Assembly (NCBI GenBank): GCA_964458855.1
Contig: CAYWJS010000003.1
Coordinates: 1,957-65,956 of the forward strand
Source of the DNA: an uncultured Erysipelotrichia bacterium
GTDB lineage: Bacteria; Bacillota_I; Bacilli_A; CAYWJS01
Length of the DNA stretch: 64,000 nucleotides
Direction: 5' to 3'
This document shows, one piece after another, positions 310-45,640 of this stretch. The notes beneath the pieces were generated by a model. It did no database searches. It was not told the origin of the DNA and worked only from the letters and a program-made list of their open reading frames with translations. Each line of letters begins with the position of its first letter. The stretch's first letter is position 1. The translations under genes and the position numbers were made by a program.

Positions 310-2919
310 ATGGATTCAAATATTCAATTAAAAAATCAATTTGCCTGGACTTCTTTTTATATGGAGTTTGCTGATAAACTGTTGCCATATAAAAATAATC
401 GTTCGCACCTTCTTGAGTTGTTAAAAGACGTTTATAACGATTTAGGATTGCGCTATCCGTTTATAGAAAAGGACGGTATGCTGATTGACGATATTTGCCC
501 GTTTACCGTATTTGGCTGTTTTAATAAAGGGATTTCCAATGAAAATCGTATTGCTTTGATGAAAGGCATTGGCAGTAAACTCGGTGTTAAGACTTCAGTG
601 CCTACAGAATTTGACGGCATTCCGGTACTTAACAACATGAAGGCTTGGTTTTTCGCCGGTAAAAGTGAGCGAAAAGAAGATGACATTCCCAACCTATGGG
701 ACACATTTGAAGCCGGATTAAACTATGCAGACAATCCGTCAGAAGTCTCCAAGTCAGCATTTATAGCCTGTTATGATAAAGTAAGAAAGCAATTTGGAAT
801 TAAGTGGAATTTAACTATGGGACTGTATTGGATACGCCCCTTTTCCTACTTAAACCTTGATGATCGTAACAGAAGTTATCTGACACAAGATAGCTCTCCT
901 TATTATGCAAGTATTACTAAAATTTCTAACTTAAAGCAGCCTCCAAGTGCAAAAACCTATTTAGATCTCATTACTGTATGTAAAGAAATCTTTGCAAAGA
1001 GCGACAGTCCTTATCACAGTTTTCCCGAACTGTCCCACATAGCATGGGCTACAACAACTTCGGGAGCACGGAATAACAATATCACTTCAACCGCTAATAA
1101 AAAAATAGGCTGGATTTTTCAAGGTAATCCTAAATACTATGATGTTATGGGTGCTATTAAGGATCTTGATGTTGTAACATGGAGCGTAAAGCAATACCAA
1201 AACCAGATCAAAAAAGGCGATCGCGCTTATATATGGGTTTCAGGCCCTGAGGGTGGCATTGTTGCTTCAGGAGTTATTCTCTGTGACCCAGAAATCAGGG
1301 AAAATAATGAGCCTGACCCCTATGATCTTTCTGGCGATATAAGTACAGGAGAACGTCTTGTCGTAGATATTGAACTTACCCAAAAAATAACGGATGCTGT
1401 TATTAAGAGAGAAGATTTCTTAGCGGATGAACGCCTAAAAAACGCAAATATTATTTCTTTCCCAAATGTAACAAATTCTAGATTGACTTCCGAGCAGGCC
1501 GATGTTATAGACAGCATTATCAACGGCACCTATATACGTATAGAGCCAAAGAATTCAGATGAAACATCAGCCCCTTTAAGACGATACTGGATTTATGCCC
1601 CCGGCAGCAATTCTTCCAAATGGGAAGAGTTTTACTCTCAAGGAATTATGGGTATTGGATGGGATGAATTAGGCGACCTTAAACAATACCCCAGCAAAGA
1701 TGCCATGAAAGCCAAAATGAAGGAACTGTATGGCGCTGAATACTCATATATTAACTCAGTCCTTGCCACATGGCAGTTTGCTAATGAGATTAAAGTCGGC
1801 GATATTGTTTATGCAAAAAAAGGCATGCATAAAGTAATCGGGCGTGGCATAGTTGAATCCGACTATATTTTTAACGCAGATCGCGATGAGTATAAACATA
1901 TTCGTAAAATCAAATGGACACATAACGGGGAGTGGGAACACCCGGGACAAGCTGTCATGAAAACCCTTACCGACATAACTCCTTATACTGATTATGTACA
2001 AAAACTAGAAGCGCTCTTTATTGATGATGACTCTGTAGATATTGAAGAAAAAGAAATTGTGTATGAGTCCTACACCGAAGATAACTTCCTCAATGAAGTT
2101 TTCATGGATGCCGAACGTTACAATACTTTGGTTAATCTCTTAAAAACCAAGAAAAACATCATCCTGCAAGGAGCGCCCGGCGTTGGTAAAACTTTTGCTG
2201 CCAAAAGACTTGCTTTTTCCATAATGGGGCAAAAAGATACAAGCCGCGTTATGATGGTTCAATTCCATCAAAGTTACAGCTATGAAGACTTTATTATGGG
2301 ATTCCGGCCAACCAAAGACGGATTTGAGCTTACCCCCGGGCCTTTTTACCAGTTCTGCAAAACAGCACAGGATGACGATGAACGGGATTATTTCTTTATC
2401 ATTGACGAAATTAACCGCGGCAATGTAAGCAAAATTTTTGGTGAGTTGATGATGCTTATAGAAAAGGAAAAACGCGGTGAAAAACTACGCCTTCTTTACT
2501 CCAACGAGTTATTTTCTGTTCCCAAAAATCTCTACATTATCGGTATGATGAATACTGCCGACCGCAGCCTTGCCATAATCGATTATGCTTTGAGAAGAAG
2601 ATTCGCTTTCTTTGAACTCGAGCCTGCTTTTGACTCTGAAGGATTTAAAAAAATTATACAGCAAGCAAACAACCCCAAGTTTAATGCCCTGGTTGAGCAA
2701 ATTAAAGCTTTGAATGACTTTATCTGCAAGGATGAATCCCTTGGCAGTGGGTTCAGAATTGGACACAGTTATCTGTGCACAAATAGTGAGGTAACCGACG
2801 AATGGCTGGAATCCGTTATTAAGTATGAATTGTTGCCTCTTTTAAACGAATATTGGTTTGACGAACCATCCAAAATAGAACAGTGGACAAAAAGGCTGAG
2901 TGAGGTTTTATATGATTAG
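310..2919 (+). CDS. mcrB: McrB-like AAA+ GTPase subunit of a type IV (modification-dependent) restriction system, with a long N-terminal extension carrying two PUA-like (EVE/YTH-type) reader domains
   Basis: ORF track 869 aa; Walker A GAPGVGKT (nt ~2170-2193), McrB signature MMNTADRS, RBS GAGGTG before ATG; N-terminal segments with W/GD/G-rich beta-barrel-like pattern. Confidence 0.85.
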   Translation: MDSNIQLKNQFAWTSFYMEFADKLLPYKNNRSHLLELLKDVYNDLGLRYPFIEKDGMLIDDICPFTVFGCFNKGISNENRIALMKGIGSKLGVKTSVPTEFDGIPVLNNMKAWFFAGKSERKEDDIPNLWDTFEAGLNYADNPSEVSKSAFIACYDKVRKQFGIKWNLTMGLYWIRPFSYLNLDDRNRSYLTQDSSPYYASITKISNLKQPPSAKTYLDLITVCKEIFAKSDSPYHSFPELSHIAWATTTSGARNNNITSTANKKIGWIFQGNPKYYDVMGAIKDLDVVTWSVKQYQNQIKKGDRAYIWVSGPEGGIVASGVILCDPEIRENNEPDPYDLSGDISTGERLVVDIELTQKITDAVIKREDFLADERLKNANIISFPNVTNSRLTSEQADVIDSIINGTYIRIEPKNSDETSAPLRRYWIYAPGSNSSKWEEFYSQGIMGIGWDELGDLKQYPSKDAMKAKMKELYGAEYSYINSVLATWQFANEIKVGDIVYAKKGMHKVIGRGIVESDYIFNADRDEYKHIRKIKWTHNGEWEHPGQAVMKTLTDITPYTDYVQKLEALFIDDDSVDIEEKEIVYESYTEDNFLNEVFMDAERYNTLVNLLKTKKNIILQGAPGVGKTFAAKRLAFSIMGQKDTSRVMMVQFHQSYSYEDFIMGFRPTKDGFELTPGPFYQFCKTAQDDDERDYFFIIDEINRGNVSKIFGELMMLIEKEKRGEKLRLLYSNELFSVPKNLYIIGMMNTADRSLAIIDYALRRRFAFFELEPAFDSEGFKKIIQQANNPKFNALVEQIKALNDFICKDESLGSGFRIGHSYLCTNSEVTDEWLESVIKYELLPLLNEYWFDEPSKIEQWTKRLSEVLYD

Positions 2920-3946
2920 AATTCAAAATATATACTATATGCTTGCTTATGCTTTTCATGTCTTAAATGAAGAAGGCTATAAACAAGTAGCAACTGAAGA
3001 TTTCGAATATACTTCTGATTTATTTGCAGCAATTCTTTCCAAAGGTATTGCCAGCCAAATCAAAAGGGGATTAAGTAGGGAGTATATCAGCAAAACAGAA
3101 GCCGTTATTTCACCTACAGGTAAAATCAATGTCTCAGCCTCCATTGTACAGAATTCCATGCTTAAAAAGAAACTGGTCTGTGATTATGATGAGTTTACAG
3201 AAAACAGTTACTTGAATAAAATACTCAAAACCACTGCAATGCTTTTGATACGCTGTCCGGAAGTATCAACGCAGCATAAAAAAGCCTTAAGGAAAACAAT
3301 GCTTTATTTCAGTAATGTTGATGAAATAAATCCGCGCAGAATTCAATGGTCGAGTATCAGATACCATAGGAATAATGCCACCTATAAAATGCTGCTGAAT
3401 ATCTGCTATCTAGTTATCGAAGGTATGCTAATGACCGAGCAGGACGGTTCCCGAAAGTTGGCCCGCTATGTAGACGACCAGCGTATGCCCAGGCTTTATG
3501 AAAAATTTGTGTTGGAATATTATCGTAGGCATTATCCCCAGTTTAATGCTTCATCCACCATTATTGACTGGGATGTCGACGGTGGAGAAATAGAATATTT
3601 ACCTACTATGAAATCAGATATAACTCTTCGATATCGGGGCAAAACACTCATTATAGACACAAAATACTATAAGAAGACCATGCAGATAAACAGCTTGTTC
3701 AACAGCCGAACAATCCATTCTCACAATTTGTATCAGATATTTACTTATGTAAAAAACATGGATTTAGCTCGTTCGGGAAATATAAGCGGCCTTTTGCTTT
3801 ATGCCAAAACTGATGAAGATATTGTACCGGACAACGATTATATTATCGGCGGTAATCGTATTAGCGTTAAAACTTTGGACTTGAATACTGACTTTTCCAA
3901 CATATCAAAACAGTTGAACGCAATAGTAGAAAAGATGTTATTATAA
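2912..3946 (+). CDS. mcrC: McrC-like nuclease subunit (PD-(D/E)xK) of the McrBC system
   Basis: ORF track 2900..3946 starts at GTG; more likely ATG at 2912 with RBS GAGGT, overlapping mcrB stop (ATGATTAG); N-terminal IRIQNIYYMLAYAF typical of McrC; catalytic-like motif IIDTKYYKK. Confidence 0.8.
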   Translation: MIRIQNIYYMLAYAFHVLNEEGYKQVATEDFEYTSDLFAAILSKGIASQIKRGLSREYISKTEAVISPTGKINVSASIVQNSMLKKKLVCDYDEFTENSYLNKILKTTAMLLIRCPEVSTQHKKALRKTMLYFSNVDEINPRRIQWSSIRYHRNNATYKMLLNICYLVIEGMLMTEQDGSRKLARYVDDQRMPRLYEKFVLEYYRRHYPQFNASSTIIDWDVDGGEIEYLPTMKSDITLRYRGKTLIIDTKYYKKTMQINSLFNSRTIHSHNLYQIFTYVKNMDLARSGNISGLLLYAKTDEDIVPDNDYIIGGNRISVKTLDLNTDFSNISKQLNAIVEKMLL

Positions 3947-4667: not shown

Positions 4668-5321
4668 TTATTTATTTCGTAATGAATTAATTGCCCCTTC
4701 TAAATTATTTTGTTTCAATAAATAATTACCAGATACTAAGATATCGGCACCACTTTCAATTGCAAGAGGAGCGGTAATATTATTAATTCCTCCATCTACT
4801 TCAATCAAAACATCTAAATTGTTTTTAATAATTTCTTTCTTTGCTTCCTTTATTTTTTCTAAAGAAAATTTTATAAACTCTTGACCACCTTTTCCTGGTT
4901 CAACTGACATAATTAATAATAAGTCAATTTCTTTTAATAAGTGTTTTATTTCAGAAACACTTGTTTTTGGTTTAATTGAAATACCACATTTTATTTTTTC
5001 TTTTTTTATCATTTTAATTAAATTATAGATATTATTCTTTATTGCTGCTTCATAATGAAAAGTTATAATTTCTGGTTTTATTTCAATATATTCTTTAATT
5101 TTTTCTTCCAAACTTTCAATCATTAAATGAACATCTAATTTCTTTTTGGATATTTTTTTTACCTTTTTTATAAGATCAATAGGAAAAGTTTTATTAGGAA
5201 CAAATTTTCCGTCCATAACATCAATATGAATATATTCACATGAGGTATTATTAAGAGAGTTTATAGTTTCTTCAATCTTATTAAAATCTGTTGAAAGAAT
5301 TGATGGAGAAATTTTTACCAT
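4668..5321 (-). CDS. rpe: Ribulose-phosphate 3-epimerase
   Basis: 217 aa; HIDVMDGKFVPN and overall Rpe pattern. Confidence 0.9.
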   Translation of the reverse strand: MVKISPSILSTDFNKIEETINSLNNTSCEYIHIDVMDGKFVPNKTFPIDLIKKVKKISKKKLDVHLMIESLEEKIKEYIEIKPEIITFHYEAAIKNNIYNLIKMIKKEKIKCGISIKPKTSVSEIKHLLKEIDLLLIMSVEPGKGGQEFIKFSLEKIKEAKKEIIKNNLDVLIEVDGGINNITAPLAIESGADILVSGNYLLKQNNLEGAINSLRNK

Positions 5322-5322
5322 A

Positions 5323-6195
5323 TTAATACCTCGGCTTTCTCTGTTTTATTTCTTCTGCAAATTTTAAGTAATTCTCATATCTACTAGATAAAATTCTTCC
5401 TTCTTCTAGTAGTTTTTTTATATTACAACCATCTTCTTCTATATGATTACAATTGCGATACTTACATTCACTTGCATTATCAAAAAATTCAGGGAAACTG
5501 TTACGTAAATCTTCTAGTTCTAATTCATTAAAATCAAGTTTTGAAAATCCTGGAGTATCTGCAACAAGTCCCCCTTGAATATTAATTAATTCAACATGAC
5601 GAGTAGTATGACGTCCTCTTCCTAAAGTTTTTGAAATAGGGCTTGTTTTAAGTTTAAAATTTTTATCTAAAGCATTTAATATACTACTTTTTCCTACCCC
5701 ACTTTGACCTGCAAGTACTGTTATTTTATCTTTAAATAAATTATTTAAAAGATTTATATTTTCTTTTGTTTTTGTTGATACCAATGTTGTTTTATAACCT
5801 ATATTTTCATAGTAATTTGCAAGGCTTTCTAAATTTTTTCGCTCTTTTTCGTTTAAAAGATCAATTTTATTAATAATAACAACCACATCAATATTTTTAA
5901 ACGTTACTGTTACTAGTATCTTATCTAATAAATTTAAACTTAATTCTGGTTCTTTTGCACTCATTACAACTATTGCTTGATCAACATTTGCAATAGGTGG
6001 TCTGATAAGAAAGTTTTTACGTGGAAGAAGTTCCATAATATAACCTTCTTTTTCATTAAACTTCACATAATCGCCAACTAGTAGTTTTATATTATCTTTT
6101 CGAAAAACTCCTCGACCTCGGCAAAAATATATTTTACTATCTGCAAGAACCAGAAAATTTCCGCTATCAGATTTTGTTATTATTCCTTTTATCAT
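5323..6195 (-). CDS. rsgA: Ribosome small-subunit-dependent GTPase A (RsgA/CpgA)
   Basis: GQSGVGKSSILNAL P-loop, C-terminal Cys/His zinc finger; ORF track extends to 6273 but overlaps prkC, so start taken at the internal Met just after the prkC stop. Confidence 0.85.
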   Translation of the reverse strand: MIKGIITKSDSGNFLVLADSKIYFCRGRGVFRKDNIKLLVGDYVKFNEKEGYIMELLPRKNFLIRPPIANVDQAIVVMSAKEPELSLNLLDKILVTVTFKNIDVVVIINKIDLLNEKERKNLESLANYYENIGYKTTLVSTKTKENINLLNNLFKDKITVLAGQSGVGKSSILNALDKNFKLKTSPISKTLGRGRHTTRHVELINIQGGLVADTPGFSKLDFNELELEDLRNSFPEFFDNASECKYRNCNHIEEDGCNIKKLLEEGRILSSRYENYLKFAEEIKQRKPRY

Positions 6196-6196
6196 A

Positions 6197-7981
6197 TTAT
6201 TCAGATTCATCTTCTGAAATTTCTTCCCCTTCTTCTGGAAATTCTGGTATTTCTTCTTCTGGGGCAAGGGCAATTTGAACTCTTAATGACGCACCTTTTA
6301 CAATATTTGTTCCTGGAGGTCTGTCTTGCCAAATAACAGTATCTGGTTCATGCTCTAATGTTTCAACATATTCAATACTTAGTTTCAACTCGTAATCTTC
6401 AGCAAATGCTTTTACCGCTTCTTCCGTCCAACCCTCTGCCATCATATCAGGGTATTTTAAAATCACATCTGGAATATATAAAGTTATTTCATCACCTGGT
6501 TTTAATAAGGTTCCTGGCTTTACAGATTGCCTAATAATTAAATCTGGATTAATACTTTTATCTTTTACTTCTTCTTTTTCAATAAAAACATTCAAACCAT
6601 ATATTTCCTCAAGTCTAACTTTTACAACATCATAATCTTGACCAACATAATCTTCAATTTCAATAGTTAGTTTTCCTTTTGATTCATAAATAATAACTTT
6701 TGTATTTTTCTTTACTGTTCTACCAGCTCGTGGACTAGTTCTTGTTACTAATCCCTTTTCAATTGTTTCGCTGTATTCTGATATAACTTCAAGTTCAACA
6801 TCAAGACCAGCATTTATCAATTTACGCTCCGCTTCAACAACACTCATTCCTGAAACATCAGGTACAACTACTTCTGAAACTTTAAAAATAATTGGAACAA
6901 TAAAGAAAATTAATAATACTAAAGCACATAATCCAGCAAAAATACTTCCTAAAATAATTATTGTTTTTTTATCTTGATTTCTCAAAACTGGTCCCCTACT
7001 TTCTAAAGTTTTTGTCTCTTCTGTTTTTGTTTGTTCTTCCTTTGAAACTTCTTTTTCTTTTTGAATTTTCTCTAATTCTTGTATTAAATCTTTTGTTTTT
7101 CTATTTGTATCAAAATATGCATATTCATATCTATTTTCATTTTCTCTTTGTTCATCAAGAACTGTTTTTAAGTCTTCAAACATTTCTTTCGTTCTATTAT
7201 AGCGATTTTCCTCATTTTTCGCGCAAGCTTTTAAAATTACATTTTCTACACTTTGCGGAATTGCAGGATTTATTTCTCTTACACTTGGAATTGGTTCATT
7301 AATGTGTTTCATGATAACATTTATTGGACTATCTCCATCAAATGGAAGTCTTCCTGTTAAAAGTTCAAACATTAAAATTCCCAAAGAATAAATATCAGAT
7401 TTAATATCAATTTTATCACCTGATGCACGCTCTGGTGCCATGTAATAAACTGAGCCCATTACTGAATCTGTTCGTGTAAGTTTTGAAGCATTTATTGCAA
7501 CAGCTAAACCAAAATCAGTAATTTTTACCGTTCCATCTTTTTGAATAATAATATTTTCTGGTTTTATATCACGATGAACTATTAAAGAAGAGTGAGCTTT
7601 AGAAAGTCCATCTGTCAACTGTTGCATAATGTCAACAACTTCCGTAATAGTTAAAGCTCCTCGCTCTTTAATCAACTTTTTCAATGTTTTTCCTTCAATA
7701 TATTCCATAACAATGTAATAATGACCATTATCTTCTCCGACATCGTAAATATCTACGATGTTTTTATGATGGAGGCTACTTGCTGATAAAGCTTCTCTTT
7801 GAAATCTTTTTAAAAAGTCTTCATTTGAAGCAAGTTCTCCTCTAAGAATCTTTATTGCTACCTTGCGATTTAAAACAGTATCATTTGCAAGGTAAACATT
7901 CGCCATACCACCTTCACCTATTAATCTTAAAATTTGATAACGTTCATTAATCATTGTTCCAATTACAAGCATATTACTCAC
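6197..7981 (-). CDS. prkC: Ser/Thr protein kinase with extracellular PASTA repeats (PrkC)
   Basis: 594 aa; kinase motifs HRDIKPENI, DFG, APE; single TM; C-terminal PASTA-like repeats. Confidence 0.9.
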   Translation of the reverse strand: MSNMLVIGTMINERYQILRLIGEGGMANVYLANDTVLNRKVAIKILRGELASNEDFLKRFQREALSASSLHHKNIVDIYDVGEDNGHYYIVMEYIEGKTLKKLIKERGALTITEVVDIMQQLTDGLSKAHSSLIVHRDIKPENIIIQKDGTVKITDFGLAVAINASKLTRTDSVMGSVYYMAPERASGDKIDIKSDIYSLGILMFELLTGRLPFDGDSPINVIMKHINEPIPSVREINPAIPQSVENVILKACAKNEENRYNRTKEMFEDLKTVLDEQRENENRYEYAYFDTNRKTKDLIQELEKIQKEKEVSKEEQTKTEETKTLESRGPVLRNQDKKTIIILGSIFAGLCALVLLIFFIVPIIFKVSEVVVPDVSGMSVVEAERKLINAGLDVELEVISEYSETIEKGLVTRTSPRAGRTVKKNTKVIIYESKGKLTIEIEDYVGQDYDVVKVRLEEIYGLNVFIEKEEVKDKSINPDLIIRQSVKPGTLLKPGDEITLYIPDVILKYPDMMAEGWTEEAVKAFAEDYELKLSIEYVETLEHEPDTVIWQDRPPGTNIVKGASLRVQIALAPEEEIPEFPEEGEEISEDESE

Positions 7982-8720
7982 CTACACCCATTTCAATATA
8001 GGCAACTGAAATATTATCAGTGCCACCTTTTTTATTAGCAGTTTTAATTAAATACATAACTTTATCATCTATTTCTAAATTTGCAGTTAAGATATTGTAG
8101 ATTTCACGATTAGTTAGCATCTCTGTTAAACCATCACTACAAAGTAAAAGTCCATCTATTTCTTTTGATACCTCAAAAATATCCATATTTGACTTTAGTC
8201 CTGCCCCCAGTGCTCGCATTAAGACGTTTTTTTGCGGATGATTATGAGCACCTAAGCTGTTAATTTCACCACTTTGAACAAGCATATTTACTAAAGTATG
8301 ATCTGTTGTAACTTGAAGAATATCTTCATCTTTTAAAATGTAAGCCCTACTGTCACCAACATTACCTACTATAATATAATCACGAGTAATAATGGCAGCA
8401 ACTAAAGTTGTTCCCATTCCTTCACAACGGGGATCAAGCTCAATTCTATCAAGGATTAAGTTAGTTATCTCTTTTGCTTCTTGTTTTAGCCAAGCAGCAG
8501 CTTGCTTTTTATCACCAATTGATTCTAATTTTCCCCATTTGCGACTAATATTGCTAATTGCTATTTCAGATGCAATCTCTCCAGCATTATGTCCTCCCAT
8601 TCCATCAGCAACTGCCATTAAATATTCACCAGATAAATTTTTTACAATAATAACACTATCTTCATTATGATTTCTTACTTTTCCAGTATCAGTCGCGTAA
8701 AAAAAATCCACATCAACCAC
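7974..8720 (-). CDS. prpC: PP2C-family Ser/Thr phosphatase (PrpC/Stp)
   Basis: 248 aa; ADGMGGHNAGEIAS motif; 8-nt overlap with prkC as in the conserved operon. Confidence 0.9.
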   Translation of the reverse strand: MVDVDFFYATDTGKVRNHNEDSVIIVKNLSGEYLMAVADGMGGHNAGEIASEIAISNISRKWGKLESIGDKKQAAAWLKQEAKEITNLILDRIELDPRCEGMGTTLVAAIITRDYIIVGNVGDSRAYILKDEDILQVTTDHTLVNMLVQSGEINSLGAHNHPQKNVLMRALGAGLKSNMDIFEVSKEIDGLLLCSDGLTEMLTNREIYNILTANLEIDDKVMYLIKTANKKGGTDNISVAYIEMGVGE

Positions 8721-37108: not shown

Positions 37109-37819
37109 TTACACAATTTGTAATCTTTTTCGTAAATCATTTATTACTTTGTTTTCCATTCTTGATACTTTTACTTGTGAAATTCCGAGTCTTTTTGCAA
37201 CCTCAACCTGAGTTTGTTCTAAATTATATCTCATTTTAATTAATAATTTTTCAGTTGGGTCAAGCTTTTCTAATTCTTCAGTCAGCTCTAGTTTTTCAAA
37301 TTCACGTTTTGCACTCTCATCTAAAATTGTATTGTGAAGTGTATTAGTCTCATTATCATATGCTTGATCCATACTTAAAATATATTCTTTTGATTCAAGT
37401 GCATCCAAAATTTCACTCTTTGAAACTCCAAGATAATTAGTTATTTCATTTATAGTTGGAGTTCTCATATATTTTTGAGTAAGAATTTCTGTTGCTTCTT
37501 CTATTTTTTGAGCAATTGCAATAATATTTCTATTATATTTTACAAGTCTTTCATTTCTTAGGTATTGTCTTACTTCACCTAAAATTATAGGAAAAGCATA
37601 GGTTGTAAGTTTTGCTCCATGTGCTTTATCATAATTTTTTACAGCTTTAATAAACCCTATAACAGCAACTTGATACAAATCATCCTCATTATAACAGGTT
37701 CGAAACCTATTAATAATAGAATAAATTAAACCCTCATTACTTTTAATTAGCTCAGCTAAAGCTTCTTTTTCATTATTCTTAGCCCTCTCTACTAATTTAT
37801 CTACATTTTGTTTAGACAT
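37109..37819 (-). CDS. sigF: Sporulation sigma factor (sigma-F by operon position after spoIIAA-spoIIAB)
   Basis: 236 aa; sigma-70 regions 2 and 4; 8-nt overlap with spoIIAB. Confidence 0.8.
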   Translation of the reverse strand: MSKQNVDKLVERAKNNEKEALAELIKSNEGLIYSIINRFRTCYNEDDLYQVAVIGFIKAVKNYDKAHGAKLTTYAFPIILGEVRQYLRNERLVKYNRNIIAIAQKIEEATEILTQKYMRTPTINEITNYLGVSKSEILDALESKEYILSMDQAYDNETNTLHNTILDESAKREFEKLELTEELEKLDPTEKLLIKMRYNLEQTQVEVAKRLGISQVKVSRMENKVINDLRKRLQIV

Positions 37820-38252
37820 TTTCTAAAACCTCAGCTAATTTTAAATTTTTGGTAATTATAAGTTCTGTTCCTTTATTTGAACTATTTATTTTTAAATCAT
37901 CAGAAAAAGTTTCAATAATTGTAAATCCCATTCCTGACCTTTCTTTATCAGGCTTTGATGTATACATTGGTTGTCTTGCAAGTTCAATGTTTTCAATTCC
38001 ACAGCCTTCATCTTTTACAACGATTTTAACACTTTTATCTTTTATACTAACTTCTAAAATTACTTGTTTTTCAGGGTCTTCTTTATACCCATGAATAATT
38101 GCATTTGTTACAGCTTCTGAGATAATTGTTTTAATTTCTAAAATTTCATCAACAGTTGGATTTAAAGGGGCAATAAAACTACTAACAGCCATTCGCGCAA
38201 ATAATTCATTTTCACTTTTTGCATCAAAAATAATTTTTATTTTATTTTCCAT
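37812..38252 (-). CDS. spoIIAB: Anti-sigma F factor (GHKL-type Ser kinase)
   Basis: 146 aa; HATPase_c motifs (E...N...G.GLGF-like). Confidence 0.85.
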   Translation of the reverse strand: MENKIKIIFDAKSENELFARMAVSSFIAPLNPTVDEILEIKTIISEAVTNAIIHGYKEDPEKQVILEVSIKDKSVKIVVKDEGCGIENIELARQPMYTSKPDKERSGMGFTIIETFSDDLKINSSNKGTELIITKNLKLAEVLENV

Positions 38253-38253
38253 A

Positions 38254-38595
38254 TTAAACCCCCATTAACTCTATCGCCATAATTTCTGAATCTGCTTCAC
38301 AAACCAAATCAAACAAGCCACTCATAGAAAATAAATTTCTTAAATGCGCGTTTAAGCCACAAACAACAATTTTCCCGCCCCTACTTTCAACTTGTTTATA
38401 TCTACCCAAAATTACTCCAAGCCCACTGCTGTCCATAAAGTTAACTTCTCGAAAGTTTAAAACTAAAAACTTTATTCCGTACTCATCAATAAGTGGTGCA
38501 ACTTTTTTGCGAAATTTTCCAGCACTGTGATCATCTAATTCCCCGCGAATTCTTACAAATAAAATTCCCTTCCGAAACTCCATGTCTATATCCAT
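38254..38595 (-). CDS. spoIIAA: Anti-sigma F factor antagonist (STAS domain)
   Basis: 113 aa; phospho-serine motif FMDSSGLGVILGRY. Confidence 0.85.
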   Translation of the reverse strand: MDIDMEFRKGILFVRIRGELDDHSAGKFRKKVAPLIDEYGIKFLVLNFREVNFMDSSGLGVILGRYKQVESRGGKIVVCGLNAHLRNLFSMSGLFDLVCEADSEIMAIELMGV

Positions 38596-38701
38596 TTTAT
38601 TCCCCCTTCGGAAACTACTTTATCATAGTTTTTTTAAAATGGTTTATTTTCGACAAAAGAAGTTTTTTTGTATAAAAAAAATGGACTTTTAGTCCATTTT
38701 C

Positions 38702-39268
38702 TTATTTAAAAATATTCATTCTTGATATAATTTGCATTCTCTCTCTCAAGTCGGTGGCACCCTTAAAAAGCTTGTTAAGAGTATGGCCAATATAAATATT
38801 GAAAAATCCAACAATAATTATTGCTAACATAATTAGTAAGTTTGAAATACTTGTAATTAAATCAGGAATAAATATTAAAACTAAACCAATAACAAGAATA
38901 AATAAATTATAATATTTTTTGATATCACCCATAATTTTGTTAGTAGTAAAAAAACCTATTATTGATTTCAAAATTAACCAACTACCAATAATTTGTACTA
39001 ATAAATTAATATTATCTGTTCCAACTAAATACAACAAAGAAACAGCAATTAAAATAGAAATTATATTATCTGTTATTGTAACCCAAAGCTTTTCACTAAA
39101 ATCTTTCATTTTGTAATTAATTATTAATTTTTCAATTGCTTGACTCATAATTAATAAACTAATAAAAATGATAATAAATTGAGGTCCCATATCTGGATTG
39201 AAAAATAATCCATAAAGACCAAACGCAATAAATACAATTCCTTTTATTATTCTTAAAGTTCCGTTCAT
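38702..39268 (-). CDS. Small polytopic membrane protein (possibly HdeD/DUF308-like), hypothetical
   Basis: 188 aa, about six hydrophobic helices; immediately downstream of the HerA-like ATPase with a 2-nt gap. Confidence 0.45.
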   Translation of the reverse strand: MNGTLRIIKGIVFIAFGLYGLFFNPDMGPQFIIIFISLLIMSQAIEKLIINYKMKDFSEKLWVTITDNIISILIAVSLLYLVGTDNINLLVQIIGSWLILKSIIGFFTTNKIMGDIKKYYNLFILVIGLVLIFIPDLITSISNLLIMLAIIIVGFFNIYIGHTLNKLFKGATDLRERMQIISRMNIFK

Positions 39269-39270
39269 TT

Positions 39271-41109
39271 TTAACCTCCTATTATTTTATTTTGGTACCA
39301 AACATTTGCAATATCAGCACTTGAGCTATATGGGTCAGGTACTGGACGTTCAATATTAACCATAACTGGTAAATTTACCGCCGTTCCAAAAGCGATGCAA
39401 GTTCCAACTTGTAAGTAAGTTAGCTTATCAAGAATTGCTGTTGTAATATTTGGGACCATCTCTCGCATATAAGCTAAATCACGTGGGTGGTTTATTCTAA
39501 ATAATATGACATTTGAACATTGTGAAACAATTGTTTCACTTACTTCAGATGGGCGTTGTGAGACAAGTCCTAAGATAATTCCGTATTTTCTTCCTTCTTT
39601 AGAAATCCTTTCAAATATGTTATAACCTAAAATCTCAATATCAGTATCTTTTTGAGCATAGCGATGTGCTTCTTCCAAAATAATATGAATTGGAAATGAT
39701 GTTCTATCTTTTAATGATTTTGTATAATTAAAAAACATTTTTGAATATATTTTTGTAATAACTTTTGCAAACCTATCATCAACACCATGAATATTAAAGT
39801 TAATAATTTGCGCCTTCTTTTCTCCTTCAATTAAAACAAGGGATTTTATGTATTCCTCTAATGAATTATATTCAGTTTCTCCAAAATAGTCATTATATGA
39901 ACCATTAATTATTGAATCAAGTCGAACTTTTAAAACATTTGTGTAATCATAAACACTATCACTACTTAATTCACCTTCAGAAATAATTGCAAAATCTAAA
40001 GCTTTTTTGAAATCCTGCAAATCATATTTTACCAATTTATCAACATAATTTAAATCAAACTCTTCTTTAATAAATTGACTAAAAAACTTAGTAATTAACT
40101 CCATCTCTCTAAGTTTTCCATGTTCATCAATTAAAAAGCATTGTTTTAAAGTCCTAATGACACCTGGCTGTACAATTTTTGCTTCTAAATTAATTTCTTC
40201 TGTATTAAAATTAACTAATACTGAAAACACTCGATCACGTGCCGTTGAAGATGAACCTGAATTAGTTAAAATTGTCATTATTGCTTTTGCTAAAATGTGA
40301 TTTTTTAAATCATTTGCTTCCTTACTACCCAATTTAAAGACTTTTACTAGATTAAGTGCTTTTTCTAAGATTGGAAGTTGAATATGGCGGTCAACACCCA
40401 AAAGTAATGCCCAATCATCAACATCTAAAAGCCATACCGGAATTTTAATTAATCGATCAGTATCTGTTGTATCAGCAGTTGTATAAGATTTAAAATTTAA
40501 TTCTGGATTAATTTTTGAAAGCTCACTAAAAGCTTGGTGATATTCACCATAAGCATCAAAAATAAAGATATTAGCATTGTATGGTACACCCTCTGTTTTA
40601 GAAAATACATTTTGGAGAATTCTTGCTACTGCATTTGATTTACCACTACCTGTATTACCAAAAATAGCAAAGTGATTACTTAAAAAATCATTTACTCTTA
40701 AATATATTGGTAAACCAAAAATTGGTGATGTACCAAGTTCAAGTTGTTTTCTCTTGTCATATAAATTAGATCCTAAAATTAATTTCACTTCTGACTTTTT
40801 AGCAAACCTAACAGTTGCTGCAAAAGACGGATTAACAGATGTTCCAAATTTAAAACGGTCATCAGAAAACTCACCTACAAAGGAAGCATAGGCATAACTT
40901 TTATCTCCTTTTTTAAAAACATCTTGAATTTCACCAATAATTTGTGATTCTGCTTCTTCAAAAATAATAAAAACATTAATTAAACTTTTGGCACGATTTA
41001 AATCAAAATTTAACTCTATTTCAACAATTGAATCTTTAATTGTCAATATCTTCCCAATCATTAAAACCACTCCTATGGTAATTTTAACACTTTTATAAGG
41101 AAGATTCAA
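39271..41109 (-). CDS. HerA/FtsK-superfamily ATPase (DUF87-like) with N-terminal HAS-barrel-like domain
   Basis: 612 aa; Walker A FGNTGSGKSN, Walker B-like HIILEEAHRY, arginine-finger region LVSQRPSEV. Confidence 0.6.
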   Translation of the reverse strand: MNLPYKSVKITIGVVLMIGKILTIKDSIVEIELNFDLNRAKSLINVFIIFEEAESQIIGEIQDVFKKGDKSYAYASFVGEFSDDRFKFGTSVNPSFAATVRFAKKSEVKLILGSNLYDKRKQLELGTSPIFGLPIYLRVNDFLSNHFAIFGNTGSGKSNAVARILQNVFSKTEGVPYNANIFIFDAYGEYHQAFSELSKINPELNFKSYTTADTTDTDRLIKIPVWLLDVDDWALLLGVDRHIQLPILEKALNLVKVFKLGSKEANDLKNHILAKAIMTILTNSGSSSTARDRVFSVLVNFNTEEINLEAKIVQPGVIRTLKQCFLIDEHGKLREMELITKFFSQFIKEEFDLNYVDKLVKYDLQDFKKALDFAIISEGELSSDSVYDYTNVLKVRLDSIINGSYNDYFGETEYNSLEEYIKSLVLIEGEKKAQIINFNIHGVDDRFAKVITKIYSKMFFNYTKSLKDRTSFPIHIILEEAHRYAQKDTDIEILGYNIFERISKEGRKYGIILGLVSQRPSEVSETIVSQCSNVILFRINHPRDLAYMREMVPNITTAILDKLTYLQVGTCIAFGTAVNLPVMVNIERPVPDPYSSSADIANVWYQNKIIGG

Positions 41110-41135: not shown

Positions 41136-42293
41136 CTAAGAGGGTATTTTACCTGTTAACATTTCTACTAAGTAGCGGTTAAATAAATCCCAAATATTTG
41201 CCTTTTCTATTTTTTCTAAGGTAATTACTGGTACTGAAAGCAATACTTTATTATTATCTATAACATTTAAAGTACCTATTCTTGCTCCTGCTTTTAAAGG
41301 AACAGTAATTTTATCAATTTCTAATTTATAAGTTACATTTCTTTTTGGTTTTCCTTTTTGATTTAAAATGTATAAATCATCTTCTAGTACTGCTTTAACT
41401 GTTGTTTTTTTAGCTTTTGCAACAAAAATTTCCTTTAACACTTGCCCTTTTGATAAAGTTTTTTCAACTTCATATTGCTGAAAAGCATAATCTAAAAGTT
41501 TCGTTGTTTCATAATTACGATAACTTTTATCAGCAATTCCCATTACTACTGATATAACACGTAAGTTATTCCTTTTTGCAGTTGCAGTTAAACAATATTT
41601 TGATTTTGTTGTATGTCCGGTTTTTATCCCGTCTACCCCTTCATAGAAACGAACTAAGTTATTTGTATTTACAAGCCAAAATTTTTCATCTGTATCTTGT
41701 CTTAAATAATCTTCATAGATTGATGTGTATTTTAAAACCTCTGGATATTTTAATACTAATTCCCTTGCCATTACTGCAAGATCATAAGCAGATGAATAAT
41801 GGTTTTCTTCATCAAGACCTGATGAATTTACAAAGTTAGTATTTTTTAAACCTAATTCCTTTACTTTTTTATTCATTTGTTTAACAAATTCCTCTTCTGT
41901 TCCAGCTACTCGTTCTGCTAAAGCAACTGTGGCATCATTAGCACTAGCAATTGCAACTGCTTTAAATAAATCCTCAACACTCATTATTTCACCTGGTTCA
42001 AGGTAAATTTGACTTCCACCAAAAGAAGCAGCATTTGCACTTACCTGAATTTTTTCATCCCAAGTAAGTCCACCAGATTTAATATCTTCTAAAATTAACA
42101 TCATACTCATTATTTTTGTCATTGATGCTGGTGCAAGTCTTTTATGAGGATCCTTTTGGTAAAGAATTTCACCCGTTGTTACTTCCATTAAAATTGCACT
42201 TTCTGATTTTGGTGTTAAATCAAGCGTTTCTCCTTTTACTGGAAGCGGCATCATTAAAAGAATTAACACCAAAATAAACATTTTCCTTTTCAT
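41136..42293 (-). CDS. dacF: D-alanyl-D-alanine carboxypeptidase (S11, DacF-like)
   Basis: ORF track to 42344; likely start ATG 42293 after RBS GAGGTG giving signal peptide MKRKMFILVL; SMTK (SxxK), SAN, KTGHT motifs. Confidence 0.8.
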   Translation of the reverse strand: MKRKMFILVLILLMMPLPVKGETLDLTPKSESAILMEVTTGEILYQKDPHKRLAPASMTKIMSMMLILEDIKSGGLTWDEKIQVSANAASFGGSQIYLEPGEIMSVEDLFKAVAIASANDATVALAERVAGTEEEFVKQMNKKVKELGLKNTNFVNSSGLDEENHYSSAYDLAVMARELVLKYPEVLKYTSIYEDYLRQDTDEKFWLVNTNNLVRFYEGVDGIKTGHTTKSKYCLTATAKRNNLRVISVVMGIADKSYRNYETTKLLDYAFQQYEVEKTLSKGQVLKEIFVAKAKKTTVKAVLEDDLYILNQKGKPKRNVTYKLEIDKITVPLKAGARIGTLNVIDNNKVLLSVPVITLEKIEKANIWDLFNRYLVEMLTGKIPS

Positions 42294-42340
42294 ACATAAC
42301 ACCTCAATAAATGTTATGCTTAAAAAATTGTAAAAATGAA

Positions 42341-44254
42341 TCATATTTTTCTACCATAAATATAGCCACCAATAATTATAACTCCAAAAAATAGTGACAA
42401 TTTAATCAATAAATGTTGTGAATTATTATTCTTTTCATTTTGAATGTTACTTTCTTTTAGGGTTTCTTTTTCTGTTGATTTCTTGCTTGTATTTTTAAGT
42501 AAGTTGTTTTCTCCAAGCGAAACAGTAACCGTTAAAGTGTCGTTTTTTCTTATTTCAGAGGGAAAGATATTAATTATTTTTCCTTTAGGAACTTTTTCTA
42601 AATATTTATAAAGAAGTTGAGTTTTAACATTTTTGTTTTGTAACCATTTTTCCAAATCAGAATATTTTTCAAATTTTGGGATTTTTATTTTTCCACTTGA
42701 AATGATTACTTCTAAAACATCATTTTTATTAAGAACTTTTTCATCATAAGAAAGCACTTTATTTTTCTCTTCTAAACTCTCTACTATTTTATATTTAACA
42801 TTTATTCCCTGTTTTTTTGCCCATGTATTTATTTCTTCTTTAGACCACTCATAAATATTCGGTATAGTAAAATTTCCTTTCGATAAAAGAACTTCAAAAG
42901 TTTCACCTGTATTTAGCTTTTGCTTATTAACGTCAATTACTGTATCTTTGGGTTCAATGCTTTCTATTATTTGAAATTTAGGATTAACCCTATTTTGAAA
43001 TGCCCAACTTTGAACTTCTTCTTTTTTCCAACCTATCATATTAGGAACATTTACTTCTTTTGGTAATACTTTTAAAGTTAAATTTATTTTAAGCTTATCA
43101 ATTAAAATACTTATTGGTTGAATTCCTATTTTTTTAGTATCAACTTCTTCTTTTATCTTAATACTATTTTTAGGATTTGTACTTTTAACATAATCATAAA
43201 TATTAAACTTATCTCCCCAATATATTTTTATTTCATTTTTAACTTCAATTTTATCTCTTGTACGAAAACGATAGAAAACTTTTTTAGTCGTCTCATCTTT
43301 TATATATGGAGCAAGCACATCATTTTCATAAGTGTCTAAATAAATTTTTTCAATATTGTAATACTTAAACATTTTTTCGCGCACACGATACTCTTTTTCA
43401 ATTTTTACTTCTCTTATTAATGATGATGTTACTTTCTCAAGGGATTCTTTCCATGGTTCCCATTTTGGATTTACTAAATTTTCTGCTTTTACTTCGTGAG
43501 TAAAACTATATTCTGAATAATAGTTGCTCATAAATTGATAGTTTCCTTTTATTTGGGCATAAATTCCAGAGTCTAAAGAGTTAGAATCTAAAAAATTAAG
43601 AGTGTATTTTTTAGTTGCAGTTCCTTTATCATATAAATAAATTTTTATTTTTATTTCATCAATATTATAAAATGCTTTCAAATCAATTAATATTGTGCCA
43701 TCATTTTCTAAAAAAGACATGTTTTCCTCTGCATTATTATTGTTTATAAAGTCTTTAAACTCAGGATTACATTTAGTACAACTTACACTATAATTTATTT
43801 TTTTATTATTTACATAAATATTTATTTCGGGAATTCTTAAAGCATTATATGAGCCTCGAACATCAGTAATATAAATATATCTTACTTTTTTCATGTTTCG
43901 ATATTTATAAACATTTCGAGTATCTATTTCATTAAACTCATTTTTTAAAATCTCTTTTTTTTGCCAAGAACTAAATTCTCCCCAAATAAAATCATCATCC
44001 AAACGATAAGGATATTCTTTTGGATTTTTCCCATTATAATAGTAATCATTTGTATAATTAATCTGTTCTTTATACCACTTCCATTTTATAATACTTTGAA
44101 CATTAACAAGCTCACTTGGTATTACTTTTTCTTCACTCCAATCACTAAAATTACTCCATTCGGTATAATAAACACTACTTTCTGCTTGTACTTTTATTGG
44201 TTTTAATAAAACAAATAATAGTAACAAAATTTTTAATACTTTTTTTACATTCAT
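42341..44254 (-). CDS. Secreted, C-terminally membrane-anchored protein with three PASTA-like repeats, hypothetical
   Basis: 637 aa; signal peptide ending VQA, W/Y/K-rich N-terminal region, three ~65-aa repeats with PASTA-like pattern, C-terminal TM LFFGVIIIGGYIYG. Confidence 0.5.
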   Translation of the reverse strand: MNVKKVLKILLLLFVLLKPIKVQAESSVYYTEWSNFSDWSEEKVIPSELVNVQSIIKWKWYKEQINYTNDYYYNGKNPKEYPYRLDDDFIWGEFSSWQKKEILKNEFNEIDTRNVYKYRNMKKVRYIYITDVRGSYNALRIPEINIYVNNKKINYSVSCTKCNPEFKDFINNNNAEENMSFLENDGTILIDLKAFYNIDEIKIKIYLYDKGTATKKYTLNFLDSNSLDSGIYAQIKGNYQFMSNYYSEYSFTHEVKAENLVNPKWEPWKESLEKVTSSLIREVKIEKEYRVREKMFKYYNIEKIYLDTYENDVLAPYIKDETTKKVFYRFRTRDKIEVKNEIKIYWGDKFNIYDYVKSTNPKNSIKIKEEVDTKKIGIQPISILIDKLKINLTLKVLPKEVNVPNMIGWKKEEVQSWAFQNRVNPKFQIIESIEPKDTVIDVNKQKLNTGETFEVLLSKGNFTIPNIYEWSKEEINTWAKKQGINVKYKIVESLEEKNKVLSYDEKVLNKNDVLEVIISSGKIKIPKFEKYSDLEKWLQNKNVKTQLLYKYLEKVPKGKIINIFPSEIRKNDTLTVTVSLGENNLLKNTSKKSTEKETLKESNIQNEKNNNSQHLLIKLSLFFGVIIIGGYIYGRKI

Positions 44255-44332
44255 TTTTTCACCTCCTATTTTATTTTTCTTTAAAATCTTTAAAAATCTT
44301 TCTCAAATAAAAAAATACGGCTTTTGCCGTAT

Positions 44333-45640
44333 TTATCTAACTACTCCGTGAATTATTTTTAAAGGTTTTGCACGTTTTCTCGTAATTTTATATGCATATG
44401 TTACAAGTTTTAGAGCTTCTTCACATTTAATATCATTTACATGAAGATAAGCAACTGGTGTATCTTTTGTTACTCTATCCCCTACCTTGCAATTTAAAAC
44501 GACTCCAACAAGTGGATCAATATCATCTTCTTTTTTATTTCTACCTGCTCCTAAAATTCTAGCTGCTTTACCAATATTTAAGGCATTTAGGGATGCTACA
44601 TACCCCTCTTTATTTAAGTACACTGGAATTATTCTTTTTGCTTTTGGAATTAAATCTGGATTATCAATCCACTTTACATTGCCACCTTGATATTTTACAA
44701 ATTCTCTAAACTTTTTAAAAGCCTCTTCACTTTCAAGCTTTTCTTTTAAAATTTTTCTTGCTTCCTTTTGATTTGGAGCAATTTTACCTAAAACAAGCAT
44801 TTCAGAAGCAAGAGCAAGAGACACCTCTAAAACATCTTTTGGACCTTTACCTTTTAAAATATCAATTGCTTCTTTTACCTCTAAAATATTTCCCACAGCA
44901 TATCCTAATGGTTCATTCATATCAGTAATATAAGCAACCGTTTCTTTACCTAGATTTTTCCCAATTTCAACCATGGTATTTGCAAGAATTGTTGCATCAA
45001 TTTTATTTTTCATAAATGCACCATGTCCAACTTTTACATCAAGTACTATCTTATCTGCACCACCTGCAAGTTTTTTTGCCATTATACTTGATGCAATAAG
45101 AGGAATTGAGTCAACAGTTCCTGTTACATCTCTTAGAGCATATATTTTTTTATCAGCAGGAGCAAGATCTTCTGTCTGACCAATAATTGCAATTTTTATA
45201 TCATTTACCTGTTTATAAAAATTTTCTAAACTTATATTTGTTTTAAAACCATCAATTGATTCAAGTTTATCAATTGTTCCTCCAGTATAACCAAGACCTC
45301 TACCACTCATTTTGGTAAATGAAAGCCCCGTGCTTGCAACAAGTGGTCCAAGAACAAGTGTTACTTTATCACCAACTCCACCTGTTGAATGTTTATCTAC
45401 TCTAATTCCTTTTATTTTACTTAAATCAATTGTTTTTCCACTATTTAAAATTTCTTCTGTTAATTTAATACATTCTTCTTTACTCATTCCGTTATAATAT
45501 ATTGCCATAAGAAGTGCACTCATTTGATAATCTGGTATCTCATCAGAGGTATAATTTTGAATAACATATTCAATTTCTTCAGAAGTCAAAGTTTCCCCAT
45601 CACGTTTTTTTTCAATAATATCAACCATTCTCATAATCAT
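44333..45640 (-). CDS. pdp: Pyrimidine-nucleoside (thymidine) phosphorylase
   Basis: 435 aa; N-terminal IEKKRDGETLTSEEI and glycine-rich phosphate-binding region. Confidence 0.85.
   Translation of the reverse strand: MIMRMVDIIEKKRDGETLTSEEIEYVIQNYTSDEIPDYQMSALLMAIYYNGMSKEECIKLTEEILNSGKTIDLSKIKGIRVDKHSTGGVGDKVTLVLGPLVASTGLSFTKMSGRGLGYTGGTIDKLESIDGFKTNISLENFYKQVNDIKIAIIGQTEDLAPADKKIYALRDVTGTVDSIPLIASSIMAKKLAGGADKIVLDVKVGHGAFMKNKIDATILANTMVEIGKNLGKETVAYITDMNEPLGYAVGNILEVKEAIDILKGKGPKDVLEVSLALASEMLVLGKIAPNQKEARKILKEKLESEEAFKKFREFVKYQGGNVKWIDNPDLIPKAKRIIPVYLNKEGYVASLNALNIGKAARILGAGRNKKEDDIDPLVGVVLNCKVGDRVTKDTPVAYLHVNDIKCEEALKLVTYAYKITRKRAKPLKIIHGVVR

Follow-up and report, generated by a model that had tools for sequence, protein, structure and literature searches.

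A spoIIA-linked family of extracytoplasmic membrane proteins in uncultured Bacilli, represented in an Erysipelotrichia genome by a member with PASTA-like repeats

What might a protein with three PASTA-like repeats be doing beside the sporulation genes of a bacterium when it belongs to neither of the usual PASTA carriers, the penicillin-binding proteins (PBPs) and the kinases? The question is raised by a gene at 42341..44254 on the minus strand of a 64,000-nucleotide stretch of DNA, here called the window, from an uncultured Erysipelotrichia bacterium (assembly GCA_964458855.1, contig CAYWJS010000003.1). By open reading frame (ORF) call, this gene encodes a type I membrane protein of 637 amino acids (aa). 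An earlier note on the same DNA had seen in it a tail-anchored peptidoglycan sensor that acts with a DacF-like carboxypeptidase in spore wall remodelling. Comparison of sequences leads us to a different emphasis, in which the conserved part of the protein is its N-terminal domain rather than the PASTA repeats or the pairing with DacF, and in which the family defined by this domain has a tie to the spoIIA locus that is well supported as a matter of gene order. We tentatively propose that the product is an envelope protein of early sporulation, made in the sigmaH/Spo0A period, with a glycan-binding head, a stalk that would target it to peptidoglycan and a structural or localising role.

A conserved head on a variable stalk

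When a profile of the N-terminal domain was searched exhaustively, 496 representative clusters matched at E≤1e-3, of which 181 reached E≤1e-30. The domain thus defines a family of some 500 clusters, so far without annotation, in metagenome-assembled genomes (MAGs) of uncultured Bacilli or 'Mollicutes'. A word-index search with the window protein as a single query recovered five distant relatives (P0002-P0006), covering the N-terminal ~60% of the query without the PASTA region; the tiny family that this suggested was rejected because the profile search showed a far larger one. A scan of metagenome contigs returned no relatives. Against A5, the profile of the family, the window protein reaches 441 bits, which is partly a self-match since the 13 sequences of that profile include the window protein itself, and it is 26-36% identical to the 12 other members across the whole N-terminal domain. 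The gene is the sole copy in the window and is likewise single-copy in each locus that we fetched. All named members are entered as 'hypothetical protein [Bacilli bacterium]' or as similar MAG entries, and NCBIfam has no model matching the window protein.

Signal peptides, stalks and transmembrane (TM) segments were surveyed in the best 150 of the 496 representatives, and statements on the family as a whole refer to this set. An N-terminal hydrophobic, signal-like segment was found in 133 of the 150 and a C-terminal TM segment in 136, with the stretch between domain and anchor ranging from 0 to 613 aa around a median of 128 aa. In the relatives this stalk consists of coiled coil or of low-complexity sequence. 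Coiled coil was seen in the 32 longest members, and Pfam searches of their tails gave no PASTA, LysM, SH3 or SPOR domain and only coiled-coil-type noise. Further, a hidden Markov model built from the window's own repeats detected PASTA-like repeats in 0 of the 149 other representatives. Judged by sequence, the PASTA stalk is peculiar to the window species within this set, and the repeats on which the earlier note had built its description are not a family trait. Because the head is constant and the stalk variable, the stalk would mainly serve to project or position the head. It appears to be replaceable, being coiled coil in almost all relatives and three PASTA domains in the window species, and this replacement suggests that PASTA domains may be usable as a plain wall-embedded spacer or targeting device.

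The earlier note had also called for a profile search of the N-terminal domain and for structure prediction, and the two came out differently: no Pfam or NCBIfam model matched above its cut-off, while AlphaFold2, run on the 13-sequence alignment, gave a confident model of the head with a mean predicted local distance difference test score (pLDDT) of 89. The domain (residues 25-400, 376 aa) contains 15.7% Phe, Trp and Tyr, with Tyr alone at 9.3%, as compared with 8.6% Phe, Trp and Tyr in the repeat region. Its first part (residues 25-121; 43892..44182, minus strand; pLDDT ~93) is predicted to form long, Tyr-rich beta-hairpins with strands at 26-43, 59-67 and 84-97 in model numbering, and carries the family motifs YYSxYSxFS, RYKWY and FSxW. 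The second part (residues ~122-256; 43487..43891, minus strand) is predicted to be a jelly roll of the CBM32 or discoidin kind, in which RYI, E143, a CxxC pair (C159, C162) and IDL..YY are conserved. A second set of long beta-hairpins makes up the third part (residues 257-340; 43235..43486, minus strand; pLDDT 90-96), with strands at 257-286 and 294-308 of the model and with the most conserved motifs of the family, YRYKDxxYxYY ... YYRYxTRDK. The domain closes with residues 341-400 (43055..43234, minus strand), whose predicted structure has the immunoglobulin (Ig) fold of Rib-type domains.

The jelly-roll beta-sandwich of the second part, ~135 aa long, is placed between the two hairpin sets and is missing in relative P0005, which identifies it as an inserted module. 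Its predicted galactose-binding-domain-like architecture is that of the F5/8 type C and CBM32 fold, and the Pfam model F5_F8_type_C_2 matched at E≤0.01 in 7 of 32 relatives, with a best value of 4e-4. On the window protein, however, the same model reaches only 14.6-15.1 bits, below the gathering score of 27.8, and the module differs further from CBM32 in its insertion between hairpins without a counterpart in the PDB, in its conserved CxxC and in having no attached glycoside hydrolase. The hairpins of the first part had no PDB match, neither the PDB, searched by sequence and by profile, nor PHROGs yielded a relative of the head, and a Foldseek search of the PDB with the full-length model returned only noise (viral spikes, E>1e-3) except for the Rib domain. 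We regard the head as a new combination of domains in which support for a lectin-like module is moderate, and this module would point to glycan binding. In its Rib-like Ig domain, its long stalk and the display of an N-terminal head, the protein resembles the Rib and coiled-coil surface proteins (alpha-like, R28, M-like), but it differs from them in having a single Rib-like unit, a TM anchor and no LPXTG motif, and in belonging to a sporulation locus.

Topology and the PASTA stalk

The window protein begins with MNVKKVLKILLLLFVLLKPIKVQA|ES, where the bar marks the predicted cleavage site. Hydropathy assigns residues 1-24 (44183..44254, minus strand) to a signal peptide with a K-rich n-region, a hydrophobic core at 6-24 and V-Q-A at positions -3 to -1, and the -1 alanine, A24, is at least 90% conserved over 150 relatives. 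The only other hydrophobic helix is a C-terminal TM anchor (residues 614-634; 42353..42415, minus strand; hydropathy 1.8-2.05), which leaves a cytoplasmic tail of just R-K-I and places residues 25-613 outside the cytoplasm in the predicted topology. A signal peptide combined with a C-terminal anchor amounts, on sequence grounds, to type I membrane topology. The anatomy given in the earlier note (signal peptide, aromatic-rich domain, three PASTA-like repeats and C-terminal TM segment) thus stands, apart from the term tail-anchored, which in its strict sense does not apply to a protein with a cleavable signal peptide that is kept across the family. As read from the sequences, no LPXTG motif precedes the C-terminal hydrophobic segment in the window protein or in P0002-P0006. 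Related orders are reported to be without sortases (PMC10868615), and a TM anchor is more in keeping with this than an LPXTG anchor would be.

On the whole protein the PASTA model PF03793 scores 41.1 bits (E 1.7e-10; cut-off 23.2) over three stretches. Scored alone, repeat 1 (residues 405-465; 42860..43042) gives 20.5 bits over positions 1-64 of the 64-position profile, repeat 2 (residues 466-527; 42674..42859) gives 19.0 bits over positions 2-63, and repeat 3, which is membrane-proximal (residues 528-587; 42494..42673), gives 22.1 bits over positions 10-63, all on the minus strand. In the predicted model each repeat consists of a helix followed by strands, at pLDDT <50 (helices at 411-420, 472-481 and 531-540). 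Residues 412-492, from the end of repeat 1 into repeat 2, align to the PASTA region of PBP2x (5u47), and this alignment takes in a P-D/N-x-Y-x-W-T/S-K-E motif that is also found in the window's own PrkC. We read the three repeats as genuine but divergent PASTA domains. The PrkC of the same genome is canonical (6197..7981; PASTA 116 bits), and a recent duplication of its PASTA domains could be ruled out as the source of the repeats given an identity of only ~21%. A word-index search with just the PASTA segment as query gave no match, even to the window protein. A PADLOC match to PD-T4-6 over the PASTA region (24.7 bits) was judged to be insignificant.

Like PBP2x/SpoVD and PrkC/PknB/StkP, the window protein has tandem extracytoplasmic PASTA domains of ~60-65 aa near the membrane. 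It differs from them in having no transpeptidase, kinase or cytoplasmic output; Pfam gave no match at E≤1 to the transpeptidase (PF00905) or kinase (PF00069) domain, in agreement with the statement of the earlier note that the protein is neither a PBP nor a kinase. It differs from PrkC also in the order of its parts, since its repeats lie N-terminal to the TM segment and repeat 3 is the one nearest to the membrane, which is the reverse arrangement. To PBPs and kinases the protein would thus add a third class of PASTA carriers, that of non-catalytic display proteins.

Could it nevertheless act as the peptidoglycan sensor that the earlier note had envisaged, working with DacF on the remodelling of the cortex or germ cell wall in the forespore? 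This model draws on the three PASTA repeats, on the operon with a DacF-like S11 carboxypeptidase, on the adjoining sporulation genes and on a position that we take to correspond to that of dacF-spoIIA in Bacillus subtilis. Sensing, however, implies an output, and the protein has no output domain and a cytoplasmic part of three residues; because everything else lies outside the membrane, its PASTA repeats could bind or localise, but it could not signal inward by itself. Both of the features that suggested the model are specific to the species, as PASTA repeats are confined to the window protein among the surveyed representatives and none of the 13 lineages that keep the gene beside spoIIAA has dacF next to it. 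Further, spore wall remodelling is a late forespore function of sigmaF and sigmaG, whereas no promoter of either type was seen by eye and the conserved sigmaH-like box described below points to the onset of sporulation instead. We therefore regard this model as improbable.

At germination, muropeptides act on PrkC-type kinases through their PASTA domains, so the window protein might instead persist in the spore, in the inner membrane or at the surface, and serve germination or attachment, with its PASTA repeats reading muropeptides and its head attaching. The nearby spoVA genes would be in keeping with such a role, as would the coiled-coil stalks of up to ~600 aa in relatives, which could project from a surface. 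Yet there is no route for inward signalling, the genome already has a canonical PrkC with stronger and only distantly similar PASTA domains, and a sigmaH-like promoter suggests early rather than late expression, so it would seem very improbable that the protein is a spore-resident one.

Given that PASTA repeats occur only in this species within the family and are individually weak, one might also suspect an assembly chimera, or a decaying and non-functional gene in which a PASTA fragment has become joined to a family member. However, the 637-aa protein recurs intact at 99-100% identity on at least five independent contigs and samples, with copies overall identical or >90% identical, and hence is not an assembly artefact. 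The gene moreover has a strong ribosome-binding site, a terminator upstream of it, three full-length repeats in register and the TM anchor usual for the family, which makes a non-functional origin hardly credible.

Linkage to spoIIA and shared regulatory motifs

Gene order was read in 16 distinct lineages with sufficiently long contigs. The family gene lies directly 5' of spoIIAA-sigF in 13 of them (L002, L004-L011, L014-L017), at a spacing of 55-100 nucleotides (nt) from spoIIAA, and spoVAC/D/E usually follow sigF. These lineages are far apart from the window species (SigF 36-42% and SpoVAD ~53% identical), so the adjacency is not due to general synteny. The upstream neighbours vary from lineage to lineage and include pdp, rpe, an ABC transporter, UvrA, a RelA/SpoT-like protein, a ClpB-like protein, HAAS and an M23 peptidase. 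In five loci sigK stands divergent upstream of the family gene (L008:1428-2126, L010:373-1083, L011:235-933, L015:2436-3137 and L016:2754-3455, all on the minus strand), and the two copies that were scanned, those of L016 and L008, score 304-309 bits against the NCBIfam SigK subfamily. The cluster in these loci reads sigK in one direction and, in the other, the family gene, spoIIAA, sigF and spoVAC/D/E. No other neighbour of spoIIAA-sigF is as constant as this family in these little-known sporulating relatives of the Mollicutes.

The linkage to dacF that the earlier note expected in related spore-formers mostly fails. Only the window species and L014 have a dacF gene in the vicinity, the order in L014 being dacF, a ClpB-like ATPase gene, a gene for a 188-aa protein, the family gene and spoIIAA, and the 13 lineages in which the family gene adjoins spoIIAA-sigF have no dacF between. 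Its place is taken by the stronger linkage to spoIIA itself. The arrangement recalls dacF-spoIIAA-spoIIAB-sigF of B. subtilis in that the gene of a secreted envelope protein stands directly 5' of spoIIAA, co-directional and in most lineages terminator-free, and in that a DacF-like gene is also present in the window. It differs in that the family gene, and not a carboxypeptidase, takes the slot, in its sigmaH-like box and in the lack of spoIIAB from most loci. Thus spoIIAA, with its STAS domain, is followed by sigF without an intervening spoIIAB in 12 loci (L002, L005-L011, L014-L017; for instance, L007:9570-10592), while the window does carry spoIIAB. This absence agrees with the report that the order RF39 is largely without spoIIAB and spoIIE (PMC10868615). 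It raises the question of how sigmaF is kept inactive in such loci. The family offers a new marker gene for the organisation of sporulation in lineages reported to be without SpoIIAB and SpoIIE.

The family gene is flanked by DNA motifs at both of its ends. An exact AGGAWWW box occurs at -44 to -56 from the start codon in 14 of the 16 lineages, compared with a background of ~1.8% per window (binomial p ~1e-20, computed at 12/13 loci scored). In L004, L015, L016 and L017 an xGAAT stands 13-14 nt beyond it, which gives a family box of AGGAWWT-N13/14-xGAAT. The sigmaH motif of B. subtilis is AGGAATT-N14-CGAAT (PMC6849360), and we refer to the family box as sigmaH-like on the strength of this consensus. 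Such a promoter would mean expression at the onset of sporulation. In the window the putative promoter of the target gene (44276..44300, minus strand) reads AAGATTT-N14-AGAAA. Inspection by eye of the regions upstream of the target gene and of dacF gave no convincing promoter of the sigmaF, sigmaG, sigmaE or sigmaK type, and a GCATA in the spacer between the two genes was dismissed as a promoter since its -10 element would fall on the dacF start codon.

At the 3' end, the family gene's stop codon is directly followed by TTTTGTCGAAT in every spoIIAA-adjacent locus displayed, with TGTCGGA in L007 and TGTCGAT in L017. The core consensus of the Spo0A box is TGTCGAA, and the element matches it. A second Spo0A-box-like element lies ~21 nt upstream, within the last ~8 codons of the gene (tandem boxes at L004:2460-2560, L005:1395-1480, L006:3160-3250 and equivalent positions), and this overlap would account for a conserved TCG serine codon in the cytoplasmic tail. 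About 25 nt downstream of the post-stop box and ahead of spoIIAA there is an extended -10-like element, TGTGCTAAATTAT. Adjacency to spoIIAA and Spo0A boxes at the 3' end of the gene occur together in 13 of the 15 lineages other than the window. Since most loci leave no space for a terminator, transcription is likely to read through into spoIIAA, and a sigmaH-like promoter together with tandem Spo0A boxes over the coding end offers a testable regulatory model. In the window the sole TGTCGAA of the 64 kb lies before spoIIAA at 38649..38655 (minus strand); it is the element that abuts the family gene elsewhere, placed here after a DUF308 gene and behind a terminator.

How might such a protein work? 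Once its signal peptide is removed, the whole protein would lie outside the cytoplasmic membrane, held by one C-terminal helix. The head would be the conserved business end, in which rigid Tyr-rich hairpins bear a probably glycan-binding jelly roll and are followed by the Rib-like Ig domain. Since the ligands recognised by PASTA domains of other proteins are uncross-linked stem peptides or lipid II, the PASTA stalk would most likely serve to keep the protein within nascent peptidoglycan that is still uncross-linked, or to guide it there. This is the material that the co-transcribed DacF-like carboxypeptidase would trim. Rather than a transmembrane signal transducer, the protein may be a structural, adhesive or localising part of the envelope of the sporulating cell.

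Several observations weigh against this explanation. Every PASTA repeat falls below the Pfam cut-off when scored singly (19.0-22.1 versus 23.2 bits), the PASTA part of the model has a pLDDT below 50 where the alignment is without depth, some PASTA domains do not bind peptidoglycan, and the likeness of the head to CBM32 is only moderate. The -10 element is degenerate in most loci, reading xGTAT or xTATG outside L004, L015, L016 and L017, and the window's own promoter box departs from that of the family by two mismatches. All members come from uncultured MAGs and are known from sequence alone. Further, the gene is found apart from spoIIA in two lineages: its neighbours in L012/L013 are a gene for a PcsB-like M23 peptidase on one side and trmB on the other, and the next gene after it in L003 encodes a membrane protein that by eye reads as DUF368-like. 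Finally, the Spo0A boxes in the 3' end of the gene could keep the synteny through regulatory overlap and not through shared function.

The last two points also favour another reading, in which the bacterium lives in a gut or digester and the protein is an ordinary surface adhesin or lectin of its vegetative cells. It would bind glycans of the host, of the diet or of neighbouring cells, with a TM anchor in place of the missing sortase system. Its position at spoIIA would then be without functional meaning, with overlapping regulatory sites alone having frozen the gene order. The source MAGs, which are from rabbit, human, rumen and digester, would suit an adhesin, and so would the report that sortases are missing from related orders (PMC10868615). 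However, the gene is single-copy in each locus and without the paralogous arrays often seen for adhesins; its conserved sigmaH-like box argues for stationary-phase or sporulation control rather than vegetative control; several lineages have the gene set between sigK on one side and spoIIAA-sigF-spoVA on the other; and in the window it is the first gene of an operon that also encodes a DacF-like enzyme. An adhesin is a possibility that we take seriously but consider unlikely.

The same linkage also permits a bolder extension of an early-sporulation role, although we think it quite unlikely. In this case the family would be an unrecognised core gene of early sporulation in RF39-type and related uncultured Bacilli, standing at the head of a spoIIA operon that sigmaH drives and carrying within its 3' end an internal promoter dependent on Spo0A, and its extracytoplasmic glycan- or wall-binding product would mark or organise the sporulation septum. 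It might even provide an alternative coupling of sigmaF activation to septum formation where SpoIIE and SpoIIAB are reportedly lacking (PMC10868615). The window protein would then be a variant in which wall recognition is made explicit by PASTA domains and a DacF partner.

The operon and its neighbours in the window

The intrinsic terminator of the upstream pdp gene (44313..44334, minus strand; a 9-pair stem followed by a T run) precedes the target gene, which therefore is the first gene of its transcription unit. Next comes the gene of the DacF-like D,D-carboxypeptidase (41136..42293 within the ORF 41136..42344, minus strand), with matches to Peptidase_S11 (PF00768, 272 bits) and PBP5_C (PF07943, 52.6 bits). 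A GAGGTG ribosome-binding site precedes the likely start at 42293, from which the protein would begin with MKRKM. The earlier note had placed this co-directional gene about 47 nt after the target, and the distance from the target's TGA to the start is exactly 47 nt; the terminator scan found no terminator between them, and the two genes are probably co-transcribed. Co-directional with spoIIAA and 2.5 kb upstream of it, the gene combines the S11 and PBP5_C domains with the position upstream of spoIIA that characterises DacF, and it has no equivalog-level match in NCBIfam.

Two further genes on the minus strand follow dacF. One encodes a HerA-type ATPase (39271..41109; DUF87 95 bits, PADLOC HerA PDLC04102 402.8 bits) and the other a 6-TM DUF308 protein with six hydrophobic segments (38702..39268). 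The target gene would probably head a four-gene unit of target, dacF, herA and DUF308, closed by the terminator hairpin AAAATGGACTAAAAGTCCATTTTTTTT that the terminator scan placed at 38678..38700 (minus strand). A weak hairpin inside herA at 40549 is without a T run and was discounted as a terminator. The herA and DUF308 pair is absent from the corresponding position in 13 other lineages, and we consider this segment (38702..41109) to be probably an insertion that parts the family gene from spoIIAA.

After the DUF308 gene come the terminator, the TGTCGAA box, spoIIAA (38254..38595), spoIIAB (37812..38252), sigF (37109..37819), a further terminator and spoVAC/D/E. The three spoIIA genes are on the minus strand, and their STAS, HATPase_c and sigma-70 domains, respectively, were identified in the identical locus L001; the sigF product scores 197-203 bits against SigF/SigG models, below the equivalog cut-off. 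The earlier note was right that sporulation genes are adjacent, with spoIIAA, spoIIAB, sigF and spoVAC/D/E all on the strand of the target gene. The window nonetheless departs from the family in that its gene is not directly 5' of spoIIAA, as dacF, herA and the DUF308 gene (3.7 kb) and a terminator intervene.

The herA and DUF308 pair resembles a defence-type two-gene module set into a sporulation locus. A close homologue of the HerA protein (E 3e-195) is encoded 6 kb from the family gene in L012. We considered a conserved partnership of ATPase plus small protein and rejected it, since the 188-aa protein of L014 and a 218-aa protein of L012 are unrelated to the DUF308 protein.

Wall enzymes lie near the family gene in two of the other lineages. 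Directly upstream of it in L012 (6702-7919) is the gene of a protein with a PcsB-like coiled coil and an M23 peptidase domain, and in L014 the segment 3005-5362, at 3-5 kb upstream of the gene, encodes VanY and a DacF-like S11 carboxypeptidase. The locus of L003 has a diversity-generating retroelement beside the family homologue (L003:1-3279), with bAvd at 1265-1627, a template repeat at 1919-2077 and a reverse transcriptase at 2095-3279. The family gene was discarded as its target because the variable repeat (5-163; 84% over 159 nt) is in a different, truncated gene upstream of ssb.

Elsewhere in the window, 4668..8720 (minus strand) holds a canonical operon of prpC, prkC (the PASTA kinase, 116 bits), rsgA and rpe. 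The pair rsgA-rpe also stands just upstream of the family gene in L004, L015 and L016, and given this placement the two PASTA-related loci of the window may once have been neighbours. Finally, at 310..3946 (plus strand) a McrB-like gene (EVE and AAA_5 domains) and an McrC gene form a type IV restriction system, in a segment whose guanine-plus-cytosine content of 38%, as compared with ~28% elsewhere, suggests that it is probably a horizontally acquired island.

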